64,000 nt of DNA from Patescibacteria group bacterium (GCA_034003985.1 JAVEXP010000002.1:144789-208788), one strand, 5' to 3'; counted from the stretch's first letter, positions 3,574-36,416 are shown. The notes: generated by a model from the letters alone, not told the origin. Program-made: numbers and translations.

Positions 3574-3827
3574 TGTCATCCTGGATTACCCATTCTGTAA
3601 TCCCGAGTATTCTTATTGTCATCCTGAATCCTCCATTCTGTCATCCTGAGCGAAGCGAAGGATCTAGATTCTTCGGCCTGCGGCCTCAGAATGACACGGA
3701 ATTTAAGTTTAATAATTTAAAACAGCTAATCTATATTTTTTCATATCATTCTTCTGTCATCCTGAGTCCCGACACGAATACTCCCTTTGTCATCCTGAGT
3801 CACGACGCAGTCGGGACGAAGGATCTC
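3574..3827. repeat. cluster of five copies of a short dispersed repeat (core TGTCATCCTGA[GA]); two copies extend into hairpin-forming modules
   Basis: Copies at 3574, 3617, 3639-3695 (TGTCATCCTGAGCGAAGCGAAGGATCT...CCTCAGAATGACA, a near-perfect inverted repeat), 3755 and 3788-3827 (contains the GTCCCGAC/GTCGGGAC palindrome). A sixth copy lies at 10893..10926. Confidence 0.7.
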
Positions 3828-3897
3828 TAAGATTTACGAATTTAATAAAAAACACGCCGATTTGATATTGATCAGCGCTTATATTAGTTATTAAATT

Positions 3898-6000: not shown

Positions 6001-6054
6001 AACCTTAGTTTTAATTTTAGCACAAATTGGTTAATTTTTGCTATAATTAAATTA

Positions 6055-10217: not shown

Positions 10218-10890
10218 AATGCAGATTCTTGAGCGGATTTATCCTTCGGTGGTAACTTTTTTAGGCAACTGGCGTCAGATGATTAAGGATGTTAAACGCT
10301 TGAAGCTGATGACAATCTCTTTATTTCTGACCGGAGTGGCTATTAATGATCGAAAAAAAATTTACCAACTGCTTGAAGAAACCTCAGTAAAAACTATCCC
10401 TCATATTCATGCCCGCCATGATATGAAGGAATGGGAATTAGATTATTTGGTTTCACGATTCAAAACCAAAGTTATCACTATCCATTATCAGCATCTGAAA
10501 AATTTTAAAAATTCAAAACACCTCAAAAAGATTTTTATTGAAAATAACGACCATAAAAGCCGAATCAGGAACTTTGAGACTCTAAAAAAGTGCGGCGGCG
10601 TGTGCATTGATCTTTCCCATTTTCAATATTATAAGAATATTGGTTCAAAGCAGTATGAAATATCCCGACAACTAGTGGCCAGCTTTAAAGTCGGCTGTAA
10701 TCATTTGAGTGCGATTTTACCTAACGGTTTTAGTCATCATTGTGCTGCTGATGCTACCCAGCTTGATTATGTAGCCATGATTCCTAGAAAATATTTTTCC
10801 CGTTATATCAACATTGAATTGGCTAATCCAATCAGAGAACAGTTAAAATTCAGAAAACACCTTGCTAAATTATTAGCTAAAGCCTGGTAA
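10210..10890 (+). CDS. hypothetical protein, possibly TIM-barrel-like (His/Asp/Glu-rich), embedded in the rml cluster
   Basis: Start set at ATG 10210 ('MTEMQIL'); the longer upstream ORF extension overlaps rfbB in another frame. No motif confidently recognised. Confidence 0.4.
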   Translation: MTEMQILERIYPSVVTFLGNWRQMIKDVKRLKLMTISLFLTGVAINDRKKIYQLLEETSVKTIPHIHARHDMKEWELDYLVSRFKTKVITIHYQHLKNFKNSKHLKKIFIENNDHKSRIRNFETLKKCGGVCIDLSHFQYYKNIGSKQYEISRQLVASFKVGCNHLSAILPNGFSHHCAADATQLDYVAMIPRKYFSRYINIELANPIREQLKFRKHLAKLLAKAW

Positions 10891-15317: not shown

Positions 15318-16637
15318 ATGTCTTTTGAGGATCAAAATCAAACATCAAAATATCCCAAAAAATTGAATCGGACGATTGTCGGTTATATCTTAGTCTCGGC
15401 GATTGTTTTGGTTTTCGGCCTTGGTTTTATTGTTGGTCAGATCGCCGGTTTTAAATATGATTTGAAAATAATTGATTCGGCCAAATCGCAGCCGGGCGAG
15501 GTTTTAAACGAGGAAAAAATTCCTGAATATTTGTCTCAGGATGTCGATTTTCAACAATTTTGGCAGACTTGGGATTACATTAAAAGCAATTATGTCAAAT
15601 CCGATATTGCCGATACTCAATTGTTTTATGGTGCCTTGGCTGGCTTGGTGGCTTCACTTGGTGATCCTTATTCGGTTTTCTTTAATCCCGAAATTTCCCA
15701 GGAGTTTGAACAAGAGCTTTCGGGGAGTTTTGAAGGCATTGGTGCGGAAATCGGTATTAAGCATGACCAATTGACCATTATCGCGCCTTTGAAAGATACG
15801 CCGGCATACCGCGCCGGGCTCAAGGCCGGTGATAAAATTTTGGCCATTGATGGTTATGATACCAGAGGCATAGCTACCGATTACGCCGTCAGCATTATTC
15901 GTGGCAAAAAGGGTACATCGGTAACATTGACGATCATGAGTGAGAACGATGAAGGACCGCGGGAAGTTTCAATCGTTCGCGATACCATTGAAATTGACAG
16001 CGTGATTGCAACCAGTAAAGATTCTGAAGGTCATAACGAAGGTGATCAGGGGTTTTCAATGAAAGACGGTCGGATTGCTTATATTGAATTACGCTGGTTT
16101 AACGAAAATACTTTAGCCGATTGGAACAAGACTATCCAAGCGGTTTTGGCGCAAAATCCCAATGGTATTATTTTGGATTTGCGCAATAATCCCGGCGGCT
16201 TTTTGAGCACCGCCATTGATATCGCCGGTGAATGGGTGGATGGCAAAGATGTGGTCTTGGAAAAATTGCGCAGCGGGGTGACGACTGCTCACCACAGTAA
16301 TCGCCAGCCTCGATTGGTTGATATTCCGACGGTGGTCTTGGTTAACGGTGGCAGTGCTTCCGGTTCGGAAATCGTAGCCGGTGCGTTGCAAGATTACAGA
16401 GTGGCCACGATTGTCGGGGAAACCACTTTTGGCAAAGGATCAGTCCAAGACCTTAAGCAATTTTCTGACGGTTCCTCGGTTAAGCTGACAATTGCCGAAT
16501 GGCTGACACCTTTGGGGCGCAGTATTAATGAACAAGGTATTGCCCCGGATATTGAGATTGAATTAACCAAAGAAGATTACGATAATGATCATGATCCGCA
16601 ATTAGCTAAAGCTCTTGAAATTTTGCGGTCAAAATAA
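15318..16637 (+). CDS. ctpA: carboxyl-terminal processing protease (S41, PDZ-containing)
   Basis: 439 aa with a signal anchor and a PDZ region ('GLKAGDKILAIDG'). The S41 catalytic region 'LVNGGSASGSEIVAGAL' and 'TFGKGSVQ' (Ser/Lys dyad) is present. Confidence 0.85.
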   Translation: MSFEDQNQTSKYPKKLNRTIVGYILVSAIVLVFGLGFIVGQIAGFKYDLKIIDSAKSQPGEVLNEEKIPEYLSQDVDFQQFWQTWDYIKSNYVKSDIADTQLFYGALAGLVASLGDPYSVFFNPEISQEFEQELSGSFEGIGAEIGIKHDQLTIIAPLKDTPAYRAGLKAGDKILAIDGYDTRGIATDYAVSIIRGKKGTSVTLTIMSENDEGPREVSIVRDTIEIDSVIATSKDSEGHNEGDQGFSMKDGRIAYIELRWFNENTLADWNKTIQAVLAQNPNGIILDLRNNPGGFLSTAIDIAGEWVDGKDVVLEKLRSGVTTAHHSNRQPRLVDIPTVVLVNGGSASGSEIVAGALQDYRVATIVGETTFGKGSVQDLKQFSDGSSVKLTIAEWLTPLGRSINEQGIAPDIEIELTKEDYDNDHDPQLAKALEILRSK

Positions 16638-16648
16638 AATATTGTTAT

Positions 16649-18157
16649 ATGCCCAAGGGAATAAAGTGGGAAGTCATCGCTCATGAATATGTCGTTAGTT
16701 TATTCCCGGTTTTTATGTTGGTTGACGGTATTTTTGTTGGCATTAAAAAGCATCTGGGAGTTGCCGTGGAAATGGCCGAAGTAATTACCGGTAACACCAC
16801 TACTCATTGCTATCAATTAAAAACTTGGGATCAGGCTCATCGGGCGCTAGTTGCCAGAATAAAAGGTAAGCCGGAAATTTTGAAAAAGTTTTTTCTGGCA
16901 ATGGTCCGTGATGGTAAAAGGCAGGTAGCTTATACTAAAAAAGTTTTCCGATTAAACCTAGCTAAAACCTCTAATCGGCAACTGAATAATTATTATCAAA
17001 AGTATTGTAGTTTGAATACTGATTTTTATGCTGTTGGTTTAATTTTACCGTTGTTGGATTTTCAAAAAACTACTTTTTTGTCCGATGAAGTGTCTAAAAT
17101 TTTAAAACATCGTCGGGCGATAAATTATTTCAGCCTGTTGACTACGCCGCTGACCGACAGTTTTAATAAAATTCAGGAGTTGAATTTATTGAGTATTTTG
17201 GTTGATATCAAAAAGAAAAAAAAGGTGTTTGGTTTATTTAAAGAATATAGTAGCCGGGAAATTGTTGATTTGTTGCCAAAGTTGGATAAAGATAGTTGGC
17301 AAAAAATCAGACGGCACGCTAAAAAATACGCCTGGGTACATTATGTTTATCAAGGACCGGCGGGTGATGAGGCTTATTTTATTGACTTCATCCGCGATTT
17401 TATCCGTCGAAAAATTGATCCCAAAAAAGAAATTCTAAATCATCGCCAAGCTAAAGAAGTGCTAGCTCGCCGCCAAAACGAGCTTTATCAAAAGCTTAAG
17501 CTCACCAGATATGAAAAACAGATTTTATTGTTGGCTCGTGATGCCGTTTACTATAAAATCTATCGCCGGGATATGCAATCGGCTTCCTATTATTATTTGG
17601 AGCCACTTTTATTGGAAATCGGCCGTCGGCTTGGATTGTCGATTAGGCAGGTCAGAATGATGTTGCCCGAAGAAATCGCCGCTGGTTTAATTGATAATAA
17701 AGTTGATTATGACGAGATTAACAGCCGGTTGAAGTTTTTGGTTTATTATCGTTTGGGTAAAACCAGAAAAATTTTGTCCGGTGTTAAAGCTAAAGAATTT
17801 TCTAAAAATGTTAAGATCGAAAAAGTTAACAAAAATATTTCTGAATTTACCGGCGCGACCGCTCAAACCGGAAAAGCCAAGGGGCGAGTTAAAATAATTA
17901 ATTCCCCCGAAGAGATGACTAAAATGAGCAAGGGTGATATTCTGGTTTCCGGAGCAACTAATCCTAATTTAATGCCGGCCATTAGGCAGGCTTCAGCGAT
18001 TGTCACCGACGAGGGTGGCCTGACTTGTCACGCGGCCATCGTCAGTCGGGAGCTGAAAATTCCGTGCGTGGTAGGAACTAATTTTGCCACTAAAGTTTTA
18101 AAGGACGGCGATACGGTGGAAGTTGACGCCAAAAGCGGTTTGGTCAAAAAAATATGA
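16649..18157 (+). CDS. paralog 1: helical N-region + PEP-utilising-enzyme mobile (phosphohistidine swivel) domain
   Basis: 502 aa. C-terminus '[66 protein letters not shown]' matches the PEP-utilizers His domain, with catalytic His in T-C-H. The N-region has no PpsA-like TIM barrel. Confidence 0.8.
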   Translation: MPKGIKWEVIAHEYVVSLFPVFMLVDGIFVGIKKHLGVAVEMAEVITGNTTTHCYQLKTWDQAHRALVARIKGKPEILKKFFLAMVRDGKRQVAYTKKVFRLNLAKTSNRQLNNYYQKYCSLNTDFYAVGLILPLLDFQKTTFLSDEVSKILKHRRAINYFSLLTTPLTDSFNKIQELNLLSILVDIKKKKKVFGLFKEYSSREIVDLLPKLDKDSWQKIRRHAKKYAWVHYVYQGPAGDEAYFIDFIRDFIRRKIDPKKEILNHRQAKEVLARRQNELYQKLKLTRYEKQILLLARDAVYYKIYRRDMQSASYYYLEPLLLEIGRRLGLSIRQVRMMLPEEIAAGLIDNKVDYDEINSRLKFLVYYRLGKTRKILSGVKAKEFSKNVKIEKVNKNISEFTGATAQTGKAKGRVKIINSPEEMTKMSKGDILVSGATNPNLMPAIRQASAIVTDEGGLTCHAAIVSRELKIPCVVGTNFATKVLKDGDTVEVDAKSGLVKKI

Positions 18158-19374
18158 ATAAAGTAGAATGGGTTAAACAATTGACCAGGGAAAACACCCT
18201 TTTGGACCGGAGTTTGCGCGCCATTGCTTATCGTGACAGCATTAAAGAAATCGGTCAGGCCAGTATGTCCAATGTTTTGTTGGTCGGTCAAGGTCAAGTT
18301 ACCTCAATGTATTATTTGCCCTCGGACTACAATAAACAGCAAAAAATAATTATCAATGAATTTAAGGGTAAGCGAGCTGATGAAATGGGAAATCAAATTT
18401 TAGAATTTTTGTCCGAAGGCTATATTTGGTCCAAAAAATTACGAAATAAAAAATTGAATCGTCGCGAATTAGTTGAATATTATCAGCAGTTTAAAAAGCA
18501 TCATGCCCATTCGCGTGGAGCCATTACATATGGCTATTGGGGTGAACCGTTAATTACTCAAAAATTACGCCAGGCTCTCAAGGTTAAAGTCGCCGGCAAA
18601 AATTTGGATAGTACCATTTCAATCTTATCTTCGCCTCGTCCTGTTTTTGGATCGCTTCAAGCTTTGCGCCATCATTCGTCGGAAGTTGAAAGAAATAAAA
18701 CCAAAATTTTAAAAAAATTAAAACTTAATAAGCAGGCTAGTGAGCTAGTTGAGATATTGAGTTGGTTTACTTTATTGTATGAGTTAGGCGAATTAGTTTC
18801 TTCTTATTTATATGATCAGTTTTTGGGGCAGCTGAAACATTCAGTCGGTAAAAAAAATTTTGCTGATTTGATGTGGTATGATCCTTTTAGTTTGGAATAT
18901 TATTTGAAGGGTCAAGATCTGAGCAAGGCGGAATTGGCCGCTCGGCAAGATTTTTGGGTGATTGAAATCCTAAATGGTAAATGGAAACTGTTTGTCGGCG
19001 CTCAAGCCCGAAAATATTATCAATCACATATTCCTCAAGAAAAGACAATTGATAATTCAGTCCTAAGAGGCACGGTTGCTAGTTTAGGCCAGGCTCGGGG
19101 AAAAGTAAAAATTGTTATTACTCAAGCAGATCAGGCTAAAATGAATAGAGGCGATATTTTGGTTTCGCCCATGACTACGCCAAGATTAATGTCGGCAGTC
19201 AAAAAAGCGGGAGCGATTGTTACCGATGAGGGCGGTTTAACCGCTCATGCGGCAATTGTCAGCCGGGAGTTCAACATTCCTTGCATTGTTGGCACCAAGG
19301 TTGCTACTAAAATTCTTAACGATGGCGATTTAGTGGAAGTGGACGCTCAACAGGGGATAGTCAGAAAAATTTAA
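18154..19374 (+). CDS. paralog 2 (shortest, most divergent N-region) with C-terminal phosphohistidine swivel domain
   Basis: 406 aa; ATGA overlap with paralog 1. C-terminus '[49 protein letters not shown]'. Confidence 0.8.
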   Translation: MNKVEWVKQLTRENTLLDRSLRAIAYRDSIKEIGQASMSNVLLVGQGQVTSMYYLPSDYNKQQKIIINEFKGKRADEMGNQILEFLSEGYIWSKKLRNKKLNRRELVEYYQQFKKHHAHSRGAITYGYWGEPLITQKLRQALKVKVAGKNLDSTISILSSPRPVFGSLQALRHHSSEVERNKTKILKKLKLNKQASELVEILSWFTLLYELGELVSSYLYDQFLGQLKHSVGKKNFADLMWYDPFSLEYYLKGQDLSKAELAARQDFWVIEILNGKWKLFVGAQARKYYQSHIPQEKTIDNSVLRGTVASLGQARGKVKIVITQADQAKMNRGDILVSPMTTPRLMSAVKKAGAIVTDEGGLTAHAAIVSREFNIPCIVGTKVATKILNDGDLVEVDAQQGIVRKI

Positions 19375-19457
19375 TTTATTTGGTTGTTAAATATTTAAGG
19401 CTGAATTGACAGTCTTTTTGGTTTATGCTAGTCTGAATATGTTGTAAAAATAACAAT

Positions 19458-21377
19458 ATGTTAGAAAAGCTTTTTACTTCTAAGCCTCGGGTCAAGATTC
19501 TGCATTGGTTTTTTCAGCATCCAAATCAGTGGTTTTACGCTCGGCAGATTGTTAAAGCTACCAAACTTGATCCGGGCAATACCCAGCGTGAATTGGAAAA
19601 GCTTATAGAATTAAATTTATTAATCGTTAAAAAGCGAGGCAGTAGCCGCTTTTTTTGTTTAAATAAAAATAATCCATATTTTTCCGGGCTTAAACAGCTT
19701 TTTGCTAATTATCAACATCACAATTTAGAGTCTGGATCAAAACCAAAGAATAATCGCACTGGTACCGGCCTTAAATATTTGGCGGACCAAGATCCTTGGA
19801 TGCTTGGTGAAGATATTCCGGATATGGATTTTTTCTTTTCTCAAATCTGGCTTTCCAGTTTTGCCAATGAATTTAAAAAAACCGCCGGAGTTGCTTATAA
19901 AAAAATCATGTGTATCTTCAAGGGGTATCATTTGTGGTTTTATTATGGTCAAGATGATTCTAATAAAGTTGGCAATTGGCTTGTAAAACGATTTTTGTCT
20001 AAGCCGGAATTTACCGGCAAGATCAATCAGCAGATTGTTTATTGGTCTGATAAATTACGCTCGTTTGCCGAAAAAATTCCCCAAGACAATCTCGCTAAAT
20101 TGTCAAATCGGCGGTTATGGCAATTATATGATCAGCATGACAAGCTTCATACCATTTATTATCAATGGGGGTGGATACCAGTGGCAGCGGATATGTTTCA
20201 CAATAATTTGACTGATGCATTAAAAGATTATTTGCGCGGCACCGGGGTGGCCGAAGACAAAGTTAACGAGTATCTGGTGACCTTAACCCAACCAACAAAA
20301 AAATCTTTGCTACAAATCGAACAGGATGAATTTCTAAAGATTGCCATTAAAATTCAAAATGATCATTATCATTTTAAATTATTTAAGGAATTGTATAAGA
20401 ACTTTAAGGAGCAGGAAGCCGCTCCTTATGGTCTAAAAACCCATACTCCAGAATACGAAAAAATGTTAGAAAAACGCATGGATGAGATTAAAGATAAAAT
20501 AAAACCCTTAATTTTAACATTGATCCAGAATCATTACCGTAAATATTTTTATATCAGTTTTATGTGGATCAATAGCGATGCGGTTTATAGTTTTGAACAT
20601 TATCTTAAAGAGTTGGTAAAAATTGTTAATTCCGGAACTGATTTAGCCAAGAAATATCAAGACCAAGAAAAAGAATTCAAGGCCAATTTAGCATTGCGCG
20701 CCAAGCTCATCAAGCAACTTAAGATCAAAAAGCCATGGTCAATCATCATTGATTCATGGGGTGATTTTATGGTAACTAAAATTTACCGTCGGTTTGCCCA
20801 GATTTTTGCGATTTATCAAATGCAGGCGATTTTAGTGGAAATTGCGAAAAGGCTCAACCTTAGTTTAATGCAAGTAAGGTTTATGTTAAATTCAGAAGTG
20901 AAAGCTGCTCTTTTAACCGGGCAACTTGATAGGTACCAGCTTAAAAAAAGAACTCGCTTTTGTGTTTATTGGGTGGAACTGGGGAAAGAGGCGGTTTTTG
21001 TTGATGATCAGGCCAGATTTTTGGCTAAGCCGGTCTTATCTGCCAAAGTCAAAGCGGTTGATGAAATTAAGGGTCAAACCGGTTGTATTGGCCGAGCCAA
21101 GGGAAAAGTTAAAATAGTTATTCGGCCTAAAGATATGGTAAAATTTAATAAAGGCGACATTTTGGTGTCGATTGCTACTGATCCAGATATTGTCCCGGCA
21201 ATGAAGAAAGCGGCCGCGATTGTCACGGAACAAGGGGGAGTTACTTCCCATGCGGCAATTGTTTCTCGAGAATTGGGAATCCCTTGCGTTATTGGTACCA
21301 AAATTGCTACTAAGGTTTTAAAGGACGGCGATGAAGTTGAAGTTGATGCCACTAAGGGTATAGTTAAAAAAATATAA
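19458..21377 (+). CDS. paralog 3: N-terminal winged-helix-like extension + helical region + phosphohistidine swivel domain
   Basis: 639 aa. The first ~90 aa ('[51 protein letters not shown]') resemble a wHTH fold. C-terminus '[22 protein letters not shown]'. Confidence 0.75.
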
Positions 21378-21381
21378 CAAT

Positions 21382-22851
21382 ATGATGATTCCTTTTGACA
21401 AAAAATGGGTGGTATTAGAAAAAGAAGATTATGCCAATTATCTTTTTGTTGTTTCAACTTGGGAAGCCTTTACAATCAAAAATCCAGAATACGGATTTAA
21501 AAACTTTAGCTGGTTGTCGGCCGAATATATAAACAAAGAGTGCAATCTATTTTGTCCGCTTGAAGTATATCAAGATCTATCCAAAGATTATTTGGCCAGT
21601 ATTTTTACCAGTCCGGCAATCTGGTATAAGCTCCACCAAGAAAATATTTATTATGCCAAAGAGACTTTTAGATTTGCCCGCGAGGTTAAAAAACTTAATG
21701 TCTCAAAAATGTCTGATAAGCAGATTTTGAGTTGGTTAAATAAATTTGAAATAGTCCAACAAGAAAATCATGACCGGCGCGGACCAATGTTTATGATTGA
21801 AGTCAAGGATAATCTTTTCTCCAACTATTTGATGGAATATCTTCGAGAAAGATGCAACGATCTAAATTCTAAAATTTCGCCTTTAACGGCTTTTCAAATT
21901 TTAACCACTCCTACTAAAAAAAGCATAATAAAAAAGCAACAGGAAGATTTAGCAATGATTGCTTTATTGAATGATAAAACAAAACAGGAAAGATTATTGA
22001 TAAGACATGTCAAAAAGTATGAATGGTTGGAATACGGTTTGCAGGGCAAAGTGTTGGATATCGGGTATTTTCGTCAGGAGTTATCTCGGGTTAAAAACCG
22101 AAGGCCAAAACAATTGATTTTAAAATACCACAATGAAATTAATGATCTTAAATTAAAACAACGGCAAATTACCAAAAATTTGAAAATTCATCGTCATCAT
22201 CAAAAACTTTTTAATATCGCCAGGGAGTCAATTTATGTTAAAGTGTTAAGCAAGGACGCCCAATTTTATTCTTATTATGCCACCGAAAATTTGTTCAAAG
22301 AGTTGGCCCGGCGCGGCGGGTTGACGTTGGAACAGGTGAGATTTTTAACTTTTAATGAATACCAAAAAGTTATATCGGGAAAAAATTTAGCTACCTTGGC
22401 CAATGATCGGATGAAATACAGTATTCACTTTGCTGATCGCGGCAAAACGGTCATCTATGCTGGTTCAGAGGCCAACCAAGTCAGAAAAAAGATAAATTTT
22501 ATCCGTGACGACAACGTATTGGATAAATCATTAACGGAGTTTGGCGGCAGCCCGGCTTATCCTGGCAAGGTCAGTGGTAAGGTAAAAATAATCAATTCTA
22601 CTCAAGAGATGATGAAGATGCATCGCGGTGATATTTTGGTTTCTCATATGACCAATCCTGATATCGTGCCAGCCATGAAATTAGCCGCCGCTATTGTTAC
22701 CGATTTAGGTGGGATTACTTGTCATGCCGCGATCATTAGTCGTGAATTAAAAATTCCCTGTGTCATTGGAACTAAAATCGCCACCCAAGTTTTGAAAGAT
22801 GGTGATAAAATTGAGGTTGACGCGTTAAAAGGAATAATTAAAAAGATATGA
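21382..22851 (+). CDS. paralog 4 with C-terminal phosphohistidine swivel domain
   Basis: 489 aa. 'GGITCHAAIISRELKIPCVIGT'; shares the 'LTTPTKKS', 'HVKKYEWLEY' and 'QVRF' motifs with the other paralogs. Confidence 0.8.
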   Translation: MMIPFDKKWVVLEKEDYANYLFVVSTWEAFTIKNPEYGFKNFSWLSAEYINKECNLFCPLEVYQDLSKDYLASIFTSPAIWYKLHQENIYYAKETFRFAREVKKLNVSKMSDKQILSWLNKFEIVQQENHDRRGPMFMIEVKDNLFSNYLMEYLRERCNDLNSKISPLTAFQILTTPTKKSIIKKQQEDLAMIALLNDKTKQERLLIRHVKKYEWLEYGLQGKVLDIGYFRQELSRVKNRRPKQLILKYHNEINDLKLKQRQITKNLKIHRHHQKLFNIARESIYVKVLSKDAQFYSYYATENLFKELARRGGLTLEQVRFLTFNEYQKVISGKNLATLANDRMKYSIHFADRGKTVIYAGSEANQVRKKINFIRDDNVLDKSLTEFGGSPAYPGKVSGKVKIINSTQEMMKMHRGDILVSHMTNPDIVPAMKLAAAIVTDLGGITCHAAIISRELKIPCVIGTKIATQVLKDGDKIEVDALKGIIKKI

Positions 22852-23462
22852 AAAAAAATGAAATCAAACTCATAATTTTTGATGCTTATGGAGCAGTCAT
22901 GAGTAGAGGTTATCCTGACACCATGGCGGTTTTGGCCAAAAGATTTGCTATTCCCGAAAAAAAATTGAGCGAGGTGATTTATCGCAAGTATTTTGAAATG
23001 GCCGCCCAACGCCAGATCACCCAAAAGCAGGCTTGGCAGTTGCCGGTTAAAGAGCTTAATTTGCCAATCAGTTGGCAAGAATTGCGCGATCTTCATTATG
23101 GTTTAATGGAGATAAACCAGCCGGTTTTTGAAATCGCTAAAAAACTCCGAAAAAAGTATAAGGTGATAATTTTAAGTAAGAGCACTAGAACGCAATTTGT
23201 TGATGTTTTAAAAAAGAAACATCCTCAAGTGCCAAGAAATTTTGATGCCATTGTCAATACTTGGGAACTTGGTCTGCCCAAAGCCTCAAAAGAGACTATT
23301 AGTTTTTTGGCTAAAAGATTTAAGATATCGCCCAAGGAGATTTTGTATATTGATGATCAGCGGTCAAACTTGGTCGCATTGGATAAAATGGGTGGAAAAA
23401 CGATTTACTATCAAAATTTTAAGCAATTTAAAAAAGAACTTGAGCACTACATTGATCTATGA
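22848..23462 (+). CDS. HAD-superfamily hydrolase with atypical motif I (D-x-Y-G)
   Basis: 204 aa. 'LIIFDAYGAVM' is motif I with Tyr at D+2; 'ILSKSTRTQ' is motif II; 'YIDDQRSNLVALDKMGGKTIY' is motif III/IV. ATGA overlaps on both sides place it in one operon with the paralog array. Confidence 0.7.
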   Translation: MKKNEIKLIIFDAYGAVMSRGYPDTMAVLAKRFAIPEKKLSEVIYRKYFEMAAQRQITQKQAWQLPVKELNLPISWQELRDLHYGLMEINQPVFEIAKKLRKKYKVIILSKSTRTQFVDVLKKKHPQVPRNFDAIVNTWELGLPKASKETISFLAKRFKISPKEILYIDDQRSNLVALDKMGGKTIYYQNFKQFKKELEHYIDL

Positions 23463-24931
23463 AAAACAACATTAAACTGAAAGATTTTGTTTTTATGTCG
23501 CAACGCCAGCGGACCAGCCCTTTTCCTAATTATTTGTCAATGGAGGCGATGTGCGACGAATCCCGCCGCTATGTTGGCCAACGGCTCAAAGAAATGCTTT
23601 GTATTTGGCAAGGCAATTTATTTTTTGCCTTTCCCCATAAGCTTTCTTATGAAAAATCAGGCAAACAGCTGGTTAAAAAAATATTGGTTAATCGCCGCTG
23701 GCCCGCTCAAATGGTTGCCAGTCAAAAAAAATACGGCAAGGTTTTGGTTGAATTTACCAAAAAAATTCATCAATCGGTTGGATCTAAAACTACCAATCGG
23801 CAGCTGGCCAAGATGTTTGAGGACTACGAGAAAAGATATAAACCCGTTTATGCCACTTACGGCTGGGTTTGGCTGGTTGAAGATTTTTTTATGGCCGAGT
23901 TGCTGAAGCTTGTTGAATCTAAAATCAAAAACCCTAATCAGGCGGTTGATATTTTGAATATTCTGACCAAACAGCCCAAAGCAATGGTGGCGCTGATTGA
24001 GCGCAAAGCCCTGCTTGAATTGGCCGTTAAAATCGGCAACAAACCAGGATGGAAAACAAATCAATCAGTTGTTAGATTGATAAATAGTCATATCAGAAAA
24101 TATTTTTGGGTTACCAGGGATTATGAAGATCCGGCTATCAGTCATGACGATGTGGTCAGGCGCTTGGCTGATTTGTTTAGAAAAGATTATCGTCGGGAAT
24201 ATCAACGATTAGTCGGTGCACTCAAGAAAGATAATAAGCTGCAAAAAAAATATTTAAACACCTTGGGATTTAGCGTTACCGAAAAAGAATTATTTGGCGC
24301 GATGCGCGATATTGCCAACCTTAAAGAGCTGCGAAAAACTCATGTTTCGCAATCGCTTTATTATTTTGATAAAGTTTTGGAAGAAATCGCCCGGCGCTTA
24401 TTTTTAAGCATTAGGCAAGTCAGGTTTATGAAAACGGTCGAGATCCGCCAAGCCTTAATTGAGGGTAAAGATTTTACAGCAGAATTGAATAATCGTTTAA
24501 GACTTTCTGCCTGGGACTGTCGGACTGCTAAAACTGAAATTTTTACTGGTTATTCAGCCGAAAAGATATTTAAAGAATTTTGTAAGGTTGATAAAAATAT
24601 CAAAGAATTCTTTGGTCTGCCGGTATCGCCCGGTAAAGCCAGAGGAAAAGTTAAGATTGTGATGAATCCGGACGAATGCGATAAAGTCCAAAAGGGTGAT
24701 ATTATCGTTACTGTTCAGGTAGTGCCCAGCTTTTCAACGGCCATTATTAAGTCTGCCGGTTTAATTTGTGACGGCGGTCACGGCATTACTTCACATCCGG
24801 CAACTTTGGCTCGAGAAGCGGGAATTCCTTGTGTTATTCAAACCAGGTTTGCCAGGGAGGTACTACAAGACGGTGATGAAGTAGAAGTTGATGGGTATGC
24901 CGGGATCGCCAGGATTGTTAAAAGACAATAA
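23459..24931 (+). CDS. paralog 5 (divergent His domain: T-S-H-P-A)
   Basis: 490 aa. C-terminus 'GDIIVTVQVVPSFSTAIIKSAGLICDGGHGITSHPATLAREAGIPCVIQT...VEVDG'. N-region retains 'HIRKYFWVTRDY' and 'QVRFM' motifs. Confidence 0.75.
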   Translation: MKNNIKLKDFVFMSQRQRTSPFPNYLSMEAMCDESRRYVGQRLKEMLCIWQGNLFFAFPHKLSYEKSGKQLVKKILVNRRWPAQMVASQKKYGKVLVEFTKKIHQSVGSKTTNRQLAKMFEDYEKRYKPVYATYGWVWLVEDFFMAELLKLVESKIKNPNQAVDILNILTKQPKAMVALIERKALLELAVKIGNKPGWKTNQSVVRLINSHIRKYFWVTRDYEDPAISHDDVVRRLADLFRKDYRREYQRLVGALKKDNKLQKKYLNTLGFSVTEKELFGAMRDIANLKELRKTHVSQSLYYFDKVLEEIARRLFLSIRQVRFMKTVEIRQALIEGKDFTAELNNRLRLSAWDCRTAKTEIFTGYSAEKIFKEFCKVDKNIKEFFGLPVSPGKARGKVKIVMNPDECDKVQKGDIIVTVQVVPSFSTAIIKSAGLICDGGHGITSHPATLAREAGIPCVIQTRFAREVLQDGDEVEVDGYAGIARIVKRQ

Positions 24932-24974
24932 TTTAGATAAACAAAAAACAGCCGGATTGCTGTGGGGGGGGTGA

Positions 24975-25006
24975 GGGGAGAGAAGTCCATATTTGGATCT
25001 CTCCCC
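24975..25006. terminator. perfect 9-bp stem hairpin (GGGGAGAGA/TCTCTCCCC) beside a G8 tract, between convergent genes
   Basis: Read directly. It lies downstream of the stop of the minus-strand GC-rich gene (25029) and downstream of paralog 5 (24931). The arrangement mirrors the hairpin/poly-G pair at 2946-2998. Confidence 0.45.
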
Positions 25007-25028
25007 TCGGCGTGCGCGTTGGTGGGGT

Positions 25029-25685
25029 CTACGGGATGGCGATTCCATACCAGTCTTCTGAGAGGCGCAGGATTTCGATCTCGACGATTTTGCCGTCTTC
25101 GAAGGTCGCCAGGAATCCCTCGCAGTATTGAAGCTGGCCTTCAATTGCGTCCATCGTCATTGGCAGATTTGCACCCAGCCGGTTGGACAGTTTGATGGCC
25201 GCGCCGTCGATGGCCGCGCCGTGGACGGTGACCAAGTGGTCTCCTTCTACGGCTCCGCGTTCGTCAATGACTTCGAGCATCTCGCTACTCTTAATGTCTA
25301 CTGCCTCGGGAGCCGTTTCCATAATCGCCGCTTCGACGGTGATCTCGGCTGTCTTGGCATGGGCTTTGGCGGCCTTCAAACCTTCGCTTACGATGTCGCG
25401 CTTGTCAGTGCTGAAATCATCCAGCCGCGGATCATGCGCAATGTCGGGCTCGATAGCCGGTTTGTAGCCGCAGATCCCGCGGACGAGCACGATCAGGGTT
25501 CGCCAGCACCGGGGCTGGGGACTGCTGACATAGTCGACAAAGTGAAAGTTGAAGACCCGGACAAATACTCCCATCACAAATGCGATGACTTCGCCGCAGT
25601 CGGTCAGGGCCTGGGGGTCTTTCTCGTTTGCCTTGTCTCTCTCACTGTGTCGAATAACCAGTACTCTTGATTGCATCAGTCTCAT
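25029..25685 (-). CDS. histidine phosphatase superfamily protein (SixA / PGM-like branch), GC-rich foreign-looking gene
   Basis: Start set at the internal Met ('MRLMQSRVLVIRHSE...'), which has an AAGGA RBS 8 nt upstream. 'RVLVIRHSERD' matches the RHG motif context, 'LTDCGEV' the L-T-x-x-G loop, 'YVSSPQPRCWRT' the 'vySSPl.Ra.qTA' motif, and 'HLVTVHGAAI' the second catalytic His motif. GC is far above background. Confidence 0.6.
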   Translation of the reverse strand: MRLMQSRVLVIRHSERDKANEKDPQALTDCGEVIAFVMGVFVRVFNFHFVDYVSSPQPRCWRTLIVLVRGICGYKPAIEPDIAHDPRLDDFSTDKRDIVSEGLKAAKAHAKTAEITVEAAIMETAPEAVDIKSSEMLEVIDERGAVEGDHLVTVHGAAIDGAAIKLSNRLGANLPMTMDAIEGQLQYCEGFLATFEDGKIVEIEILRLSEDWYGIAIP

Positions 25686-25850
25686 CCTTCTTGTCTGGCC
25701 GCATTCTCTATTGCGGCCGCCATTCCTGCCATAAGTCACCAATCACACTGGTTGACTCGATAAAGCAGCAATCAGCACAGGGCGATTGCCGCTCAATTGA
25801 GCCAACCAATGATATAACACGCACTATTTAACTTTAAAGAACGATATATG

Positions 25851-25859
25851 ATTATAGCA
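25851..25859 (-). promoter_or_regulatory. putative extended -10 (TGCTATAAT on minus strand) for the GC-rich gene
   Basis: Minus-strand 'ACAAAATATGCTATAATCATAT' ~110 nt upstream of the gene. It shares the motif AAAATATGCTAT(A/T)AT with the promoter of the first GC island. Confidence 0.4.
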
Positions 25860-25986
25860 TATTTTGTAAATATTGTCAAAGGAAAATTAAAATTATTAGC
25901 TCAAATTAGCTAAAATATTGTAAAAATTACTGATTACTGCTAGAATTAAATTATTATTTTACCCTAAAAATCAAAATTTAAAAAAT

Positions 25987-26952
25987 ATGACAAAGTTTAC
26001 CAAACCATTCCCTAAAATTTCCAAAAAAGATGTTGCCATCGCCGGCGGCAAGGGTGCTTCGCTTGGCGAAATGACTAATGCTAAAATTCCAGTGCCTAAG
26101 GGGTTTGTAATTTTGGCTGAAGCCTTTGATCATTTCTTAAATGAAACCCCAAAATCGCCGGTTGCCCAAACCGATTTAGAAGTCGATGCTTTGCTTGCAA
26201 AAGTTAATTTTGATGATACTAATTCCATTGATAAGGCTTCCAATGTTATTCGTGATATTATGCACGACACCAAAATGCCAAAAGCTTTGGCTCAGGAAAT
26301 TGCCGCTGAATTCAAAAAACTCAAAACTAAATATGTAGCCGTCAGGTCTTCGGCTACGGCTGAAGATTCCTCAATCGCTTCTTGGGCCGGTGAGTTGGAA
26401 ACTTATCTGCACACGACTGAGAAGACATTGTTGGATAAAGTTAAACATTGCTGGTCATCACTATATACGCCTCGGGCGATTTTCTATCGTTATGAAAAAA
26501 AGCTGATTGACCAGCAAGTTTCAGTGGCTGTCGTTGTTCAAGAAATGGTCGAATCTGAAATTTCGGGGGTTGCCTTTACCGTCCATCCTGTTACCAAGGC
26601 TAAAAATCAAATGATCATTGAAGCCGGATTTGGCCTAGGCGAGGCGATTGTTTCCGGCCAGATTACCCCGGACAGTTATATTGTCGACAAGACTGATTTA
26701 TCTATTTTGGATATCAATGTGGCTGAACAAAAACGGATGTTGGTTCGTAAAAGTCAGGCCGGCGGCATTGTTTGGAAACCAGTAGCCAAAGCCAAACAGG
26801 AGTCGCAAGTACTTTCTGGTAAACAGATTATTGAATTGTCTAAAATCTGTATTAATATCGAAAAGCATTATAAATGTCCTCAGGATATTGAGTGGGCCTA
26901 CACCAAGGGCAAATTTTATATTACTCAATCAAGACCGATTACTACTCTTTAG
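25987..26952 (+). CDS. stand-alone ATP-grasp nucleotide-binding domain of the PEP synthase / pyruvate phosphate dikinase family (PPDK_N only)
   Basis: 321 aa. 'VAIAGGKGASLGEMTNAKIPVPKGFVILAEAF' matches the PpsA/PPDK N-terminus. It ends with 'PQDIEWAYTKGKFYITQSRPITTL', the C-terminal boundary of the ATP-grasp module. No His domain and no TIM barrel in the same ORF. Confidence 0.85.
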   Translation: MTKFTKPFPKISKKDVAIAGGKGASLGEMTNAKIPVPKGFVILAEAFDHFLNETPKSPVAQTDLEVDALLAKVNFDDTNSIDKASNVIRDIMHDTKMPKALAQEIAAEFKKLKTKYVAVRSSATAEDSSIASWAGELETYLHTTEKTLLDKVKHCWSSLYTPRAIFYRYEKKLIDQQVSVAVVVQEMVESEISGVAFTVHPVTKAKNQMIIEAGFGLGEAIVSGQITPDSYIVDKTDLSILDINVAEQKRMLVRKSQAGGIVWKPVAKAKQESQVLSGKQIIELSKICINIEKHYKCPQDIEWAYTKGKFYITQSRPITTL

Positions 26953-26958
26953 GTTTCT

Positions 26959-28500
26959 ATGACCGCCAAGATTTGGACTAAAAATTGGGAAATCAGGCGA
27001 GTTAGTTTTTTGCTCTCGCACGAAGCGCCCGAATCGTTTCTCAAACTGCAGAATCTTTATTTTGGCTCTAAAATTCTTACTCAAATCATTTGGGTAAACG
27101 AAAATCAAGATAATACCGCCACCTATTTTTTAAAGCCTGAACTGCGCCGGGCGATTGACGCCACTTTTGATTTGGTTGTTAATAATCCCGGCAAGGTTTC
27201 CCAAATTCACCGCCAAGCCATTGAACATAACCGCGACCTTTTCCGATTATTAAAAAAGACCCAGTCGGTTAATCTGGCTAAATTTTCCAACCAACAATTG
27301 GCTTTGCTCTATTCCAGAATTTTTAAAAAGATTCAGCTGGCCCATGGCTCCAGTTTTTACTCCACTTACTTGGTAGATGCCGATGGTGAAGACCTGACAA
27401 ATTATTTGATTAATAAAGTCCGCCAAAGAATTATTGAGCTTAAACTTAAGCTTAATTTTGCTGAAGTTTTCAGCCTATTGACCACCCCAACCAGGATTAA
27501 TTTGGAACAACTGGAAAACCGTCAATTTCTGGCGGTATTGAGCGATATTACCGCTGATTCCCAAGCTAAAAAATTATTCTTGGGGAATTTGCCTGATCAA
27601 ATTGAAAAGAAATTAAACGAATTGGACCCGCGGTTAAAGAGAAAAATTGTTAATCACCATCGGCGCTGGCAGTGGATTCCTTATGATTATTTAGGCCCAG
27701 CTTATGAACTTGGTTACTATTTAGAAATTTGGCGAGGGTTATTAAAACAAAAAATAAATATTAACAAAGAGATTGCCAAACTGGTTAATGGCCGTGATGA
27801 AATCAGGAAACAAAAAAATAAATTATTTAAACAGTTGGAGTTTAACCGTTATGACCGTCAAATTTTTGATTTGGCCAGTGAAATCGTTTGGCTTAAATCA
27901 TGGCGCAAAGAGGTTTTATTTTTTGCCAGTTTTATTGTTGATAAAGTTTATCAAGAGCTGGCCAGGCGCTGTCATATTTCGTTCAATCAAGCTAGGCACT
28001 TGACTAATATCGAGGTGGCCCAAGTTTTATCGGGCAAGGTTGTGCCGATTAATGAGTTAAATCAAAGAATAAAATTTGTCGTTATTCATTTTAAATCTTT
28101 CAGCAAACGGATAATGACTGGGGCAACGGCCAAAAAGTTTATGGCCACTCAGCATTTTGAAAAAATAAAGATTGTTGATGCTAAGGAGTTGAAAGGCACC
28201 CCGGCTTGTCCGGGTAAAGTCAAGGGTTTAGTCAAAATTGTCAATGTGCCAGATGAAATGTCTAAAATGAAATCCGGTAATATAATGGTGGCCCATTCGA
28301 CTTATCCTTCTTTGGTGCCGGCCATGAAAAAGGCCGGCGCGATTATTACCGAAGACGGCGGTTTAACCTGCCATGCGGCGATTGTGGCCCGAGAGTTAAA
28401 AATCCCTTGCGTGGTTGGAACCAGGATTGCCGCTAAAGTCTTGAAAGACGGTGATATGGTTGAAGTTGACGCCACCAATGGTATAATAAAAAAAGTATGA
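26959..28500 (+). CDS. paralog 6 with C-terminal phosphohistidine swivel domain
   Basis: 513 aa; starts 7 nt after the ATP-grasp gene. 'GNIMVAHSTYPSLVPAMKKAGAIITEDGGLTCHAAIVARELKIPCVVGT'; shares 'LTTPTRINL' and 'HHRRWQWIPYDY' with the other paralogs. Confidence 0.8.
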   Translation: MTAKIWTKNWEIRRVSFLLSHEAPESFLKLQNLYFGSKILTQIIWVNENQDNTATYFLKPELRRAIDATFDLVVNNPGKVSQIHRQAIEHNRDLFRLLKKTQSVNLAKFSNQQLALLYSRIFKKIQLAHGSSFYSTYLVDADGEDLTNYLINKVRQRIIELKLKLNFAEVFSLLTTPTRINLEQLENRQFLAVLSDITADSQAKKLFLGNLPDQIEKKLNELDPRLKRKIVNHHRRWQWIPYDYLGPAYELGYYLEIWRGLLKQKININKEIAKLVNGRDEIRKQKNKLFKQLEFNRYDRQIFDLASEIVWLKSWRKEVLFFASFIVDKVYQELARRCHISFNQARHLTNIEVAQVLSGKVVPINELNQRIKFVVIHFKSFSKRIMTGATAKKFMATQHFEKIKIVDAKELKGTPACPGKVKGLVKIVNVPDEMSKMKSGNIMVAHSTYPSLVPAMKKAGAIITEDGGLTCHAAIVARELKIPCVVGTRIAAKVLKDGDMVEVDATNGIIKKV

Positions 28501-28769
28501 AGCGTTTAACTTTAACGATCCATGGCTTGGTCCAAGGCGTCGGTTACCGTTACATGAGTCAAAATGAGGCCAAAAAAAGGGGTTTTACCGGTTATGTGAC
28601 CAATCATAATGACGGCGGGGTGATTTTGGTAGCCGAAGGGGAAGAAGAGGACTTGAAAAAATTCAAAGAATGGTGCTATAATGGAGTTGGACCAGCAATG
28701 GTCAAAAAAATCGAAATGGACTGGTCGGGCGCGACTGGTGAATTTTCTGATTTTGTTATAAAATTCTAG
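28497..28769 (+). CDS. acyP: acylphosphatase
   Basis: 90 aa. 'LTIHGLVQGVGYRYMSQNEAKKRGFTGYVTNHNDGGVILVAEGEEEDLKKFKEWC' matches the acylphosphatase signatures (V-x-G-x-V-Q-G-V-x-F/Y-R and G-x-V-x-N-x-x-D-G-x-V). ATGA overlap with paralog 6. Confidence 0.85.
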   Translation: MKRLTLTIHGLVQGVGYRYMSQNEAKKRGFTGYVTNHNDGGVILVAEGEEEDLKKFKEWCYNGVGPAMVKKIEMDWSGATGEFSDFVIKF

Positions 28770-35003: not shown

Positions 35004-36416
35004 TTAGTATGTTTCATTATCGAATATTTCTTCCCATGATATAAATTGGTATTCGCCGGTTGTCGGAAAAAATGGCGGCGGGGCATACAGGGTGTTAGGG
35101 TCATAAATATAGTTACGATTGTTGTAGCCACTTGATCCGCTGTCCATGTAAGGTGTTAAGTAGCTGATGGTGGTACCGTATAAGGTGAATTGATCCCTGA
35201 CTGTTGTTGAACCGCATTGGAATGTCGAACCATAATCGGGACGATAACGCCGACCATTTTTAGCTATCAAGACCGCGTCAATTTCTAAGTCATTCTCGGA
35301 ATAAAGGCCAATGACGACATTTCGTTGGGCGATCAGACCAATAACATCCAAACCTTCTTTGTCGGTATAAAGCAAATCATTATTAAGGAAAATATCAGCT
35401 GTCCCCGTATCTAGTGGTTCTTTGGCAGCCACTACCGTCACCCGGTTGCCGTTTACCGTCCCGTCTACCCAGGCATTATCTTTGACGAAAATCAGACCAT
35501 TTTCCGGGATAGCAGTCGTAGTCCAGTCGTTTTGATATGAACTTATGCCGCCGGTTTTTTCGCCGTTGCAGTTTCCGGTAGCGCTGGCAACTTTTCGGTA
35601 ACGAAATGTTTCATTGCCCAAGAATTGAATATGGTAACCCTGGTAGCCTGAACTTTCAAGCAGAATGCCATCTGAGTCAGCGTGAGTTTCCATGGTATTC
35701 AGATCCTGAGTAAAACCGGCGAAATCAACTGCCGGTACCGGAAACTCTTTGCCGGCTAGAAAGACGGACTCTTCATTGTATTGGCTGGTCCAAACCCCGT
35801 CGCGCCAGGAGCTGTTATACCAATATTCTTCCAGGGCGCTGCTGACGATATTGTGGGCTACTCCGTCGAATCTGATGCCGCCGTTGGAGTGGACCGGCCC
35901 AAATGTTTCCGATCCTTCACCATAATTCAGGTTGTCATTAACCACAGTAGTATATCTCGCCAATGACGGCCGACCAAGTAAGACGGCGATGTTTCTTTTG
36001 GTTCGGGGATAATTTTTTGCCCAGCCGGTTGATTTTATTTTAACAACAGTGGATCCGGGATAGCTGGGATCGGGCGGGGTGATACTGATTTCAAAATAAC
36101 CAAGCAGTCCGCCACCCGGATCATAATACTCGTGGCGGTACGGCCCGCAAGGGTAACATCCGGTTTCACCGGTGCCATCAGCGTAATCTTCCAAGGCGTG
36201 AGCTAAATGCCAGCGGTAGTAATTGGCGCCCGCTTCGGCAATTTGTAAAGCCAGTGCTTGAGCCTCTCTTTGATTGCTTAATTTTCCCTGTTGATTGACC
36301 AGTCCCATTAAGCCACCGGCGATTACCAAAAATACTGAGGTGAATACTAAAATCGTTATCAGTATACCACCTTTTTGTTCATTTTTCAAAATTTTTGGCA
36401 AGATTTTGATCGCCAT
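35004..36416 (-). CDS. pilus-associated protein with PilX-like N-terminal TM segment
   Basis: 470 aa. Hydrophobic N-terminus 'GGILITILVFTSVFLVIAGGLMGLV' followed by 'REAQALALQIAEAGANYY', as in PilX_N family proteins. There is no canonical G|FTxxE prepilin site. Confidence 0.4.
   Translation of the reverse strand: MAIKILPKILKNEQKGGILITILVFTSVFLVIAGGLMGLVNQQGKLSNQREAQALALQIAEAGANYYRWHLAHALEDYADGTGETGCYPCGPYRHEYYDPGGGLLGYFEISITPPDPSYPGSTVVKIKSTGWAKNYPRTKRNIAVLLGRPSLARYTTVVNDNLNYGEGSETFGPVHSNGGIRFDGVAHNIVSSALEEYWYNSSWRDGVWTSQYNEESVFLAGKEFPVPAVDFAGFTQDLNTMETHADSDGILLESSGYQGYHIQFLGNETFRYRKVASATGNCNGEKTGGISSYQNDWTTTAIPENGLIFVKDNAWVDGTVNGNRVTVVAAKEPLDTGTADIFLNNDLLYTDKEGLDVIGLIAQRNVVIGLYSENDLEIDAVLIAKNGRRYRPDYGSTFQCGSTTVRDQFTLYGTTISYLTPYMDSGSSGYNNRNYIYDPNTLYAPPPFFPTTGEYQFISWEEIFDNETY

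Follow-up and report, generated by a model that had tools for sequence, protein, structure and literature searches.

A putative multiplexed two-component dikinase in the candidate phyla radiation: six swivel-histidine paralogs beside one stand-alone ATP-grasp subunit

A 64,000-nucleotide stretch of a Patescibacteria group bacterium genome (GCA_034003985.1 JAVEXP010000002.1:144789-208788), which we call the window and which represents 64 kb of a 273-kb contig, contains a locus at positions 16649-28769 in which six co-directional paralogs, each ending in the mobile phosphohistidine (swivel) domain of phosphoenolpyruvate (PEP)-utilizing enzymes, are accompanied by a single stand-alone ATP-grasp gene. 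We judge it somewhat better than even that this locus encodes a multiplexed two-component dikinase of the rifampin phosphotransferase (RPH)/phenylphosphate-synthase class, with six partners on one ATP-grasp subunit. Our confidence in the enzyme class is higher than in the reading as a whole, and sharing of the subunit by all six partners is about an even call. The feature belongs to the RPH-like dikinase superfamily and is neither a PEP synthase nor RPH proper. What is new here is the 1:N layout, the ancient subfamilies, the recurring accessory set and a paralog with a winged helix-turn-helix (wHTH); the split into two components is itself already known. The case is built on domain content, fold, conservation of catalytic residues, synteny and natural fusions, all observed here. 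The features of the locus are as follows.

16649..18157, plus strand: paralog 1, 502 aa; substrate domain and swivel His domain, catalytic H461; PF00391 88.8 bits
18154..19374, plus strand: paralog 2, 406 aa; PF00391 86.8 bits; ATGA-coupled to paralog 1
19458..21377, plus strand: paralog 3, 639 aa; winged helix, substrate domain and swivel His domain; PF00391 95.4 bits
21382..22851, plus strand: paralog 4, 489 aa; PF00391 83.7 bits; ATGA-coupled to the HAD gene
22848..23462, plus strand: HAD-superfamily hydrolase, 204 aa; PF00702/PF13419
23459..24931, plus strand: paralog 5, 490 aa; PF00391 57.9 bits; divergent His motif GGHGITSHPATLARE
25029..25676, minus strand: histidine-phosphatase-like gene, 215 aa from ATG; convergent with paralog 5
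25677..25879, minus strand: promoter-like site and structured leader of the phosphatase-like gene (promoter scan, RNA fold)
25987..26952, plus strand: stand-alone ATP-grasp (PPDK_N) subunit, 321 aa; PF01326 328 bits, no other domain
26959..28500, plus strand: paralog 6, 513 aa; PF00391 90.9 bits; 6 nt 3' of the ATP-grasp gene
28497..28769, plus strand: acylphosphatase, 90 aa; PF00708 82 bits; ATGA-coupled to paralog 6

Open reading frame (ORF) calls placed the six co-directional paralogs and the 321-aa gene at the coordinates given in a preliminary description of this DNA. That description had anticipated a C-terminal PF00391 domain in every paralog, and Pfam found it in each of them (58-95 bits; cutoff 23) with no other Pfam domain; neither the PPDK_N ATP-grasp domain nor the PEP-utilizers_C TIM barrel (PF02896) was detected in any of them by Pfam. 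The catalytic His it had proposed is invariant in the alignment of the six (H461 of paralog 1) and was present in 68/68 paralogs from 15 loci, and all His domains examined keep the full PpsA-type GG.T.HAAI.SRE motif. Family profiles run against all ORFs of ≥60 aa in the window recovered these six His domains, this one ATP-grasp and nothing more, in line with the single ATP-grasp module described earlier. The motifs LTTPT, H.KKY.W and QVRF occur in most copies and the six proteins align over their whole length, as predicted for whole-length paralogs. Pairwise identity among them is 12-28% in the N-terminal region (N-region) and 41-66% in the His domain. Whole-length alignment combined with such low N-region identity therefore indicates old whole-length paralogs, and the far greater likeness of the His domains is what would be expected if all of them dock on one partner.

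For the N-region, an AlphaFold (AF2) model of paralog 1 was built from a 101-sequence alignment (predicted local distance difference test score, pLDDT, 95.4; predicted template modelling score, pTM, 0.92). In a Foldseek search of the PDB, the top six matches to this model were all Listeria RPH (E 5e-15 to 2e-13, query TM 0.41-0.66), and the remaining matches spanned the swivel domain alone (TM ≤0.2). In the predicted structure the N-region is thus a helical substrate-binding domain of the rifampin (RIF)-binding-domain fold, placed before the swivel domain. At the level of sequence, identity to RPH is 14-18% and the RIF-binding blocks are not recognisable. A family profile that includes the His domain extends back to RPH residue 618, and the near-invariant K303/R306 falls on RPH block 9 (R666-E667-Y-P-K670) in an alignment of E about 0.3, at which the equivalence is insecure. 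The RPH equivalogs of NCBIfam (NF041857 and NF000283) gave 41-72 bits where 999 and 1700 are required, which sets the proteins apart from RPH proper. The earlier proposal of an RPH-like enzyme broken in two nevertheless holds: RPH is the only whole-length fold match, the ATP-grasp part is complete, and single-chain relatives exist in the same family. Since the N-regions fold confidently as the RPH substrate domain, they are not decayed remains of a TIM barrel or an ATP-grasp domain.

The 321-aa protein was predicted to carry PF01326 only, and Pfam found that domain at 328 bits and nothing else. Its residues 5-321 align to RPH 5-316, its C-terminus coincides with the SRPITTL boundary at which the PpsA ATP-grasp domain also stops, and K22, R120 and T139 match RPH K22, R117 and T136, of which R117 and T136 have been validated by mutation (PMC4844700). 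It also matches the structure of the stand-alone subunit HpeI (9GOJ) with E 3.5e-53. Truncation through an assembly error can be set aside because stand-alone ATP-grasp ORFs of 313-335 aa recur in nine independent metagenome-assembled genomes (MAGs) of the candidate phyla radiation (CPR). We presume that this protein is the shared component that binds ATP and charges the swivel His.

Splitting of this kind has precedents. HpeHI, CreHI and PpsAB are published two-component dikinases, all of them 1:1 pairs in aromatic catabolism (PMC12167813); in HpeHI, HpeI is the ATP-grasp subunit and HpeH joins a RIF-binding-like domain to a swivel domain, and ATP-dependent phosphorylation of this type requires both components and has an essential His (PMC12167813). 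In HpeHI (Rhodococcus), CreHI (Corynebacterium) and PpsAB (Thauera/Aromatoleum) we find the same division into an ATP-grasp-only subunit of ~320-390 aa and a substrate/swivel subunit, the same structural relation to RPH, a phosphatase co-encoded in the pathway, and, as at 25987-26952 and 26959-28500, the two ORFs side by side. The published systems differ in being 1:1 and in lying in aromatic-catabolism operons with carboxylases or P450s, whereas the ratio here is 1:6 and catabolic enzymes are missing. Unlike them, moreover, the present locus has a PpsA-type His motif with the 'regulatory' Thr, one wHTH partner and a reduced-genome CPR host. The preliminary description knew of no published 1:6 trans arrangement. 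The split as such is on record for HpeHI, CreHI and PpsAB (PMC12167813); it is the 1:N multiplexing that appears to be undescribed, and our literature searches found no account of such arrays.

The H-subunits of the three published pairs are ~45% identical among themselves, and the window N-regions were compared with them by way of PRK08296-type NCBIfam models rather than HpeH itself. These models aligned to the His-domain region only (for example, 378-500 to 481-604/608), with no match in the N-region, so the CPR N-region family looks like a lineage separate from the HpeH, CreH and PpsAB H-subunits. RPH-Lm (PDB 5FBS/5HV1) and the wider RPH-like superfamily (PRK06241; PigC/RedH/HapC) share the same three modules, namely ATP-grasp, helical substrate domain and swivel His; in RPH they lie on one chain and in the window on separate polypeptides, though the CPR family has single-chain members. 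From PpsA and PPDK the locus differs by its lack of the TIM-barrel PEP/pyruvate domain (PF02896) and by a His domain C-terminal to the helical domain, yet its ATP-grasp and His domains are most similar to those of PpsA, including GG.T(C/S)HAAIVSRE, and the presumed conversion of ATP to AMP and Pi via phosphohistidine is the same. Enzyme I of the PEP-dependent phosphotransferase system (PTS) follows a similar logic, with one source serving several phosphohistidine proteins and with homologous swivel domains. The resemblance is one of logic only: the PTS takes phosphate from PEP through a TIM barrel, whereas here the donor would be ATP through the ATP-grasp domain, and HPr and EII proteins are absent.

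We next consider how far the layout extends; in what follows, L-numbers denote retrieved CPR loci and P-numbers database proteins. A 1:N layout was seen in at least 14 CPR loci, from lineages spread over the entire radiation. The preliminary description had suggested surveying CPR genomes for a stand-alone ATP-grasp gene with many partners, and 11/11 grasp-bearing loci that we retrieved have exactly one such gene within ±10 kb, with up to 7 grasp-less paralogs in view and ratios of 1:2 to 1:7 or more. The gene comes last in L002 (4-5 paralogs), first in L022 (ATP-grasp, 4 paralogs, HAD, paralog) and at an internal position in both L012 and the window, and arrays reach at least 8 paralogs in L007 and at least 10 in L004 (Doudnabacteria). 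Falkowbacteria, Buchananbacteria, Doudnabacteria, Kerfeldbacteria and Saccharibacteria were among the lineages sampled. Searching with a profile built on the six N-regions recovered 4,111 clusters (50% identity level), of which 2,662 had E of 1e-10 or lower; most of the 4,111 measure about 500 aa and are matched from residue 1 onward.

The family also contains natural fusions. ATP-grasp, N-region and His domain lie on a single chain in L015, L018, P0241 and P0245, and in L015 and L018 the single-chain gene is followed by 3-7 grasp-less paralogs. In P0122, a single ORF of 2,309 aa strings together three paralogs, an ATP-grasp domain and then a fourth paralog, and P0154, found in 5 assemblies, carries a HAD domain ~12 residues after the swivel His domain of a paralog. 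Many relatives of ~865-1,500 aa are concatenated paralogs; those of ~865 aa, which we had considered as ATP-grasp fusions, are in fact tandem fusions of two paralogs. In P0082, P0100, P0110, P0118 and P0121-P0125, 2-4 paralogs share one ORF, and these are candidate polyproteins or gene-calling artefacts.

Comparison across loci indicates that the paralogs are ancient, separately conserved subfamilies. Paralogs 1, 2, 3 and 6 have orthologs elsewhere at 36-54% N-region identity, versus ≤29% to their in-genome siblings, which favours conserved, distinct specificities over rapid diversification; for these four, a recent lineage-specific duplication or arms-race array is rejected on the same ground. 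Paralog 1 is the most conserved subfamily, and its orthologs in further CPR MAGs reach 65% identity. Paralog 2 represents a short subfamily in which ~100 central N-region residues are missing (an alignment gap), and has an ortholog in L007 (429 aa, 45% N-region identity). Paralog 3 has an ortholog in L010 (54% identity), and paralog 6 has orthologs in L007 (37%) and L010 (35%), the latter likewise directly after the ATP-grasp gene. For paralogs 4 and 5 a recent duplication stayed conceivable on the first set of loci; for paralog 5 an ortholog was then found in L022 (39% identity), with the same His motif GGHGITSHPATLARE and in the same place, after the HAD gene and convergent with a phosphatase-like gene.

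On the multiplexed reading, the 321-aa subunit would bind ATP and pass its beta-phosphate to the swivel His of a partner, releasing AMP and Pi, after which the swivel domain would return to the partner's own helical substrate domain and phosphorylate the bound substrate. Six partners would share the one ATP-grasp subunit, each with its own substrate, probably a hydroxyl-bearing small molecule. The HAD protein, the acylphosphatase and the histidine-phosphatase-like protein may remove phosphate from labile products or reset the phosphohistidine, and paralog 3, through its winged helix, may make transcription respond to the phosphorylation or ligand state of the system. That phosphate passes in trans to all six is suggested by gene content, synteny and fusions, and trans action has a precedent in HpeHI, CreHI and PpsAB. 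Our proposals on reaction direction, on what the hydrolases and the wHTH do and on the kind of substrate are likewise inferences from these data.

Several observations weigh against this reading. Used alone against PDB sequences, the N-region profile gave RPH as its sole match, at E about 0.3, which is too weak for residue assignment, and an equivalent of Glu667 is not evident in the alignment to RPH. The His domain and ATP-grasp resemble genuine PpsA more than they do RPH or HpeI. The count of one ATP-grasp gene covers 64 kb of the 273-kb contig, so a second could lie elsewhere. Three phosphatase-type genes in a kinase locus could amount to a futile cycle unless the products are intermediates, and the locus holds no downstream pathway enzymes. 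The 2,309-aa concatenation of P0122 is a single observation, and charging of any partner by the ATP-grasp subunit is a prediction. Finally, the ATP-grasp gene lies 6 nt upstream of paralog 6, a spacing that fits a 1:1 pair plus five partners charged otherwise.

This last point leads to the alternative that survives best, although we still consider it unlikely: that the locus contains one cognate pair, with paralog 6 alone charged from ATP and the others either shuttling phosphate between metabolites or taking it from phospho-paralog 6. The placement of the ATP-grasp gene and paralog 6 resembles that of the HpeI/HpeH cognate pair, the L010 ATP-grasp gene also directly precedes a paralog-6 ortholog, and in L015 and L018 one paralog is fused to the ATP-grasp domain while the others are separate. 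Paralogs 1-5 belong to other probable transcription units, set off by an 83-nt gap with a hairpin and by the minus-strand gene at 25029-25676, and HpeH alone can catalyse phosphotransfer, moving phosphate from 4-phosphoacetophenone to acetovanillone (PMC12167813). However, the varying position of the ATP-grasp gene among arrays argues against one fixed partner, and all His domains keep the full PpsA-type motif. The other five would, moreover, need a net source of phosphate.

The accessory hydrolases bear on the remaining possibilities. The HAD protein is a member of the HAD superfamily (PF00702) and not a canonical phosphomonoesterase, as its motif I, FDAYGAV (D-A-Y-G-A-V), has Tyr at the Asp+2 position of DxDx(T/V). 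Related genes recur inside the arrays of L004, L007, L012 and L022, and across the array-linked HADs Asp+2 is absent in 6/6 (window, L004, L007, L012, L022 and P0154), with Tyr in its place ('D-x-Y-G') in 4/6 and Gly or Ser in the rest; all six retain the nucleophile Asp, the Lys of motif III and the DD of motif IV. In HAD phosphomonoesterases the Asp+2 residue protonates the leaving group, and its absence suggests a substrate with a good leaving group or, alternatively, a long-lived aspartyl-phosphate. An acylphosphatase gene also lies downstream of paralog genes in L010 and L012.

The minus-strand phosphatase-like gene stands out by composition, with 56% GC overall and 68% at third codon positions (GC3) in a locus of 38-40% GC, and is the sole segment of the 64 kb above 52% GC. 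A search of 5.8e9 proteins returned two relatives (43-47% identity), both beside arrays, plus a more distant one from Doudnabacteria. All four copies (window 24950-25750, with the ORF at 25029-25676; L004 4806-5426; L022 10001-10684; L024 1754-2428) adjoin a dikinase array on the opposite strand, and all are GC outliers by 13-19 points (56-63% GC and GC3 68-75% in surroundings of 38-46%). Because the four are only 24-47% identical to one another, the anomaly is a maintained one rather than recent. R4, R9-H10, R56 and H152, which correspond to the histidine-phosphatase catalytic core (RH..R..H), are invariant in the 4 homologs. Pfam His_Phos_1 scored 16.2 bits, below its cutoff of 21.7. A fold search with a model of pLDDT 64 gave histidine phosphatases as 50/50 top matches, each of them weak and none with E below 2e-3. 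The product is thus a candidate phosphohistidine or phospho-product phosphatase. A known RNA gene in this GC-rich island was considered and rejected: neither an Rfam scan at the gathering threshold nor a tRNA scan had any match across the window, and the GC3 of 68% and the conserved RH..R..H indicate protein coding.

Upstream of the phosphatase-like gene, a promoter scan predicted a perfect sigma-70 consensus (TTGACA-17-TATAAT with extended TG) at 25879-25851 on the minus strand, followed by a leader of ~170 nt that contains a 28-nt inverted repeat (25746-25773/25784-25811; fold -66 kcal/mol, z -5.6). The leader hairpin is not conserved in L022, L024 or L004, where the leader sequence differs, and a conserved leader or operator was rejected accordingly. 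Elsewhere in the window, a 216-aa ORF at 55838-56488 matches the phosphatase-like profile marginally (E 2e-4) and may be the genome's ordinary histidine-phosphatase-family gene. The Doudnabacteria array of L004/L005 has a second minus-strand gene with a faint His_Phos_1 match (3759-4652, 297 aa), and a GIY-YIG nuclease gene (1368-1652) and a HicAB toxin-antitoxin pair (5597-6032) are inserted between its paralogs.

Paralog 3 differs from its siblings by an N-terminal extension (~residues 1-88; 19458-19720), common to the 600-aa relatives, that is an ArsR/SmtB-type winged helix by fold and by sequence profile; a DNA-binding role is predicted. A profile of the extension matched CzrA/SmtB at E 1e-4 over nearly the full length (residues 11-86 to 28-99/106), all 28 of its PDB matches were wHTH regulators, and the best family member matched Pfam HTH_5 at 5e-5. 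JGI names one relative of paralog 3 "DNA-binding transcriptional ArsR", and PADLOC PDC-M05A shares the wHTH module (5.6e-15). In P0129, of the same subfamily, another extension, a possible ribbon-helix-helix, occupies the N-terminus.

These features could be accommodated by a broader scheme, to which we assign a small chance, in which a CPR-wide, ATP-driven phosphohistidine distribution system uses the ATP-grasp protein as a charger that loads swivel-His proteins acting both as metabolite kinases and as a regulatory relay. If true, this would be a PTS-like network made from dikinase parts in bacteria lacking PTS, complete with a wHTH paralog and hydrolases directed at phosphohistidine or aspartyl-phosphate. 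A mainly regulatory version appears quite improbable. Here the locus would be a phosphohistidine signalling network of PTS-like logic, with the ATP-grasp protein as 'kinase', the swivel-His proteins (paralog 3 included) as carriers or sensors, the HAD protein as a His-to-Asp sink and the histidine-phosphatase-like protein as a phosphohistidine phosphatase. SixA-type members of the histidine-phosphatase superfamily do dephosphorylate phosphohistidine carriers. The wHTH fused to a paralog, the possibly different DNA-binding extension of P0129, the HAD domain tethered in P0154, its missing Asp+2 in 6/6 and the constant presence of the phosphatase-like gene beside an array all speak for such a network. 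Yet no paralog has lost its large, well-folded RPH-type substrate domain, and conservation in that domain is subfamily-specific, as in enzymes with distinct substrates; no receiver or other output domains were seen, and the DNA-binding domain is confined to one subfamily.

Still less likely, in our view, is a battery for antibiotic or toxin inactivation, composed of RPH-like resistance kinases that each act on a different host- or competitor-derived compound. The RPH fold is compatible with this idea, a survey of the CPR resistome counts rph-like matches (PMC8651080), and Stogios et al. have described the RPH-like family as a 'proto-resistome' of small-molecule dikinases (PMC4844700). Against it, scores to the RPH equivalogs lie far below their cutoffs, the subfamilies do not evolve fast but are ancient, with orthologs in different CPR classes, and the co-encoded phosphatases would undo an inactivating phosphorylation. 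The context is core housekeeping, with murA and ctpA upstream and rplI and pyrG downstream, and PADLOC found no defence-system match in the locus except the winged-helix module of paralog 3; with nothing for the dikinase parts, a known defence system was rejected as well. Barely credible, finally, is a fragmented or degenerate PEP synthase, either as pseudogene remnants or as a three-way split PpsA with a TIM-barrel subunit, possibly reversed to make ATP from PEP: although the His domain and ATP-grasp score best against PpsA (NF005057; structure 8a8e at 4e-40 and 2.4e-75, respectively) and CPR papers invoke PEP synthase where pyruvate kinase is missing (PMC7304191), the NF005057 scores (73-133 bits for the paralogs, 330 bits for the ATP-grasp subunit) fall far below the cutoff of 598, the N-regions fold as the RPH substrate domain and not as a TIM barrel, Pfam found no PF02896 in the 30 other large window ORFs scanned, which removes a three-way split within the window, and intact, translationally coupled ORFs with relatives in thousands of clusters and orthologs across lineages, together with a confident model, remove a pseudogene.

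Returning to the layout of the locus, most junctions proved to be as the preliminary description had them, with ATGA overlaps at 18154, 22848, 23459 and 28497 and a 4-nt gap at 21382; only the spacing before 26959 differs, at 6 nt instead of 7. That description lacked the minus-strand gene at 25029-25676, the winged-helix extension of paralog 3 and the 83-nt hairpin gap between paralogs 2 and 3. This gap holds a terminator-like hairpin at 19397-19416 before paralog 3, and there are therefore probably three transcription units, comprising paralogs 1-2; paralogs 3-4 with the HAD gene and paralog 5; and the ATP-grasp gene with paralog 6 and the acylphosphatase. An operator in the gap was considered and rejected, the palindromes there being AT-rich and unconvincing. 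Paralogs 1-2 are possibly transcribed together with ctpA, 11 nt upstream. A paralog-1-type gene begins 11-12 nt after a gene for a PDZ-containing protease both in the window (15318-16637, S41 CtpA) and in L007 (8870-9988, M50 RseP-like), which could reflect coincidence or co-transcription.

In Pfam scans, the upstream neighbours were glycosyltransferases, rmlB/D, murA and ctpA, and the downstream neighbours rplI, pyrG, type IV pilus genes, a mur/ftsW cluster, secA and uppP. These are housekeeping surroundings, with no sign of a mobile or defence island. Four large ORFs had no Pfam match at E 1e-5: 3898-6000 (minus strand, 700 aa), 35004-36416 (minus, 470 aa, within the type IV pilus cluster), 9994-10890 (plus, 298 aa) and 58647-59330 (minus, 227 aa). 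An Ldh_2 (Malate/L-lactate dehydrogenase family 2) gene occupies an unusual place at 44671-45681, between mraY and murD in the cell-wall cluster.

The value of the finding lies in the size and conservation of the family, its systematic mislabelling in CPR genomes and its unexpected accessory set. The window proteins stand in NCBI as "PEP-utilizing enzyme [Patescibacteria group bacterium]", and the labels in current use ("PEP-utilizing enzyme", "pyruvate, water dikinase", "rph", "PEP synthase") mislead because the proteins have no TIM barrel and carry the His domain C-terminal to the helical domain. Such mislabelling can distort metabolic reconstructions of CPR bacteria, in which PEP synthase closes glycolysis if pyruvate kinase is missing (PMC7304191), as well as resistome counts (PMC8651080). 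CPR genomes of ~1 Mb have few metabolic genes; this locus devotes ~12 kb to one enzyme family, and other lineages hold at least 10 copies. A swivel-His protein that binds DNA would represent a novel type of one-component regulator, and the separately conserved subfamilies offer six defined targets for substrate discovery. If an ATP-grasp subunit is shared 1:N, the recently recognised two-component dikinases would no longer be confined to single catabolic pairs but would include a multiplexed platform.

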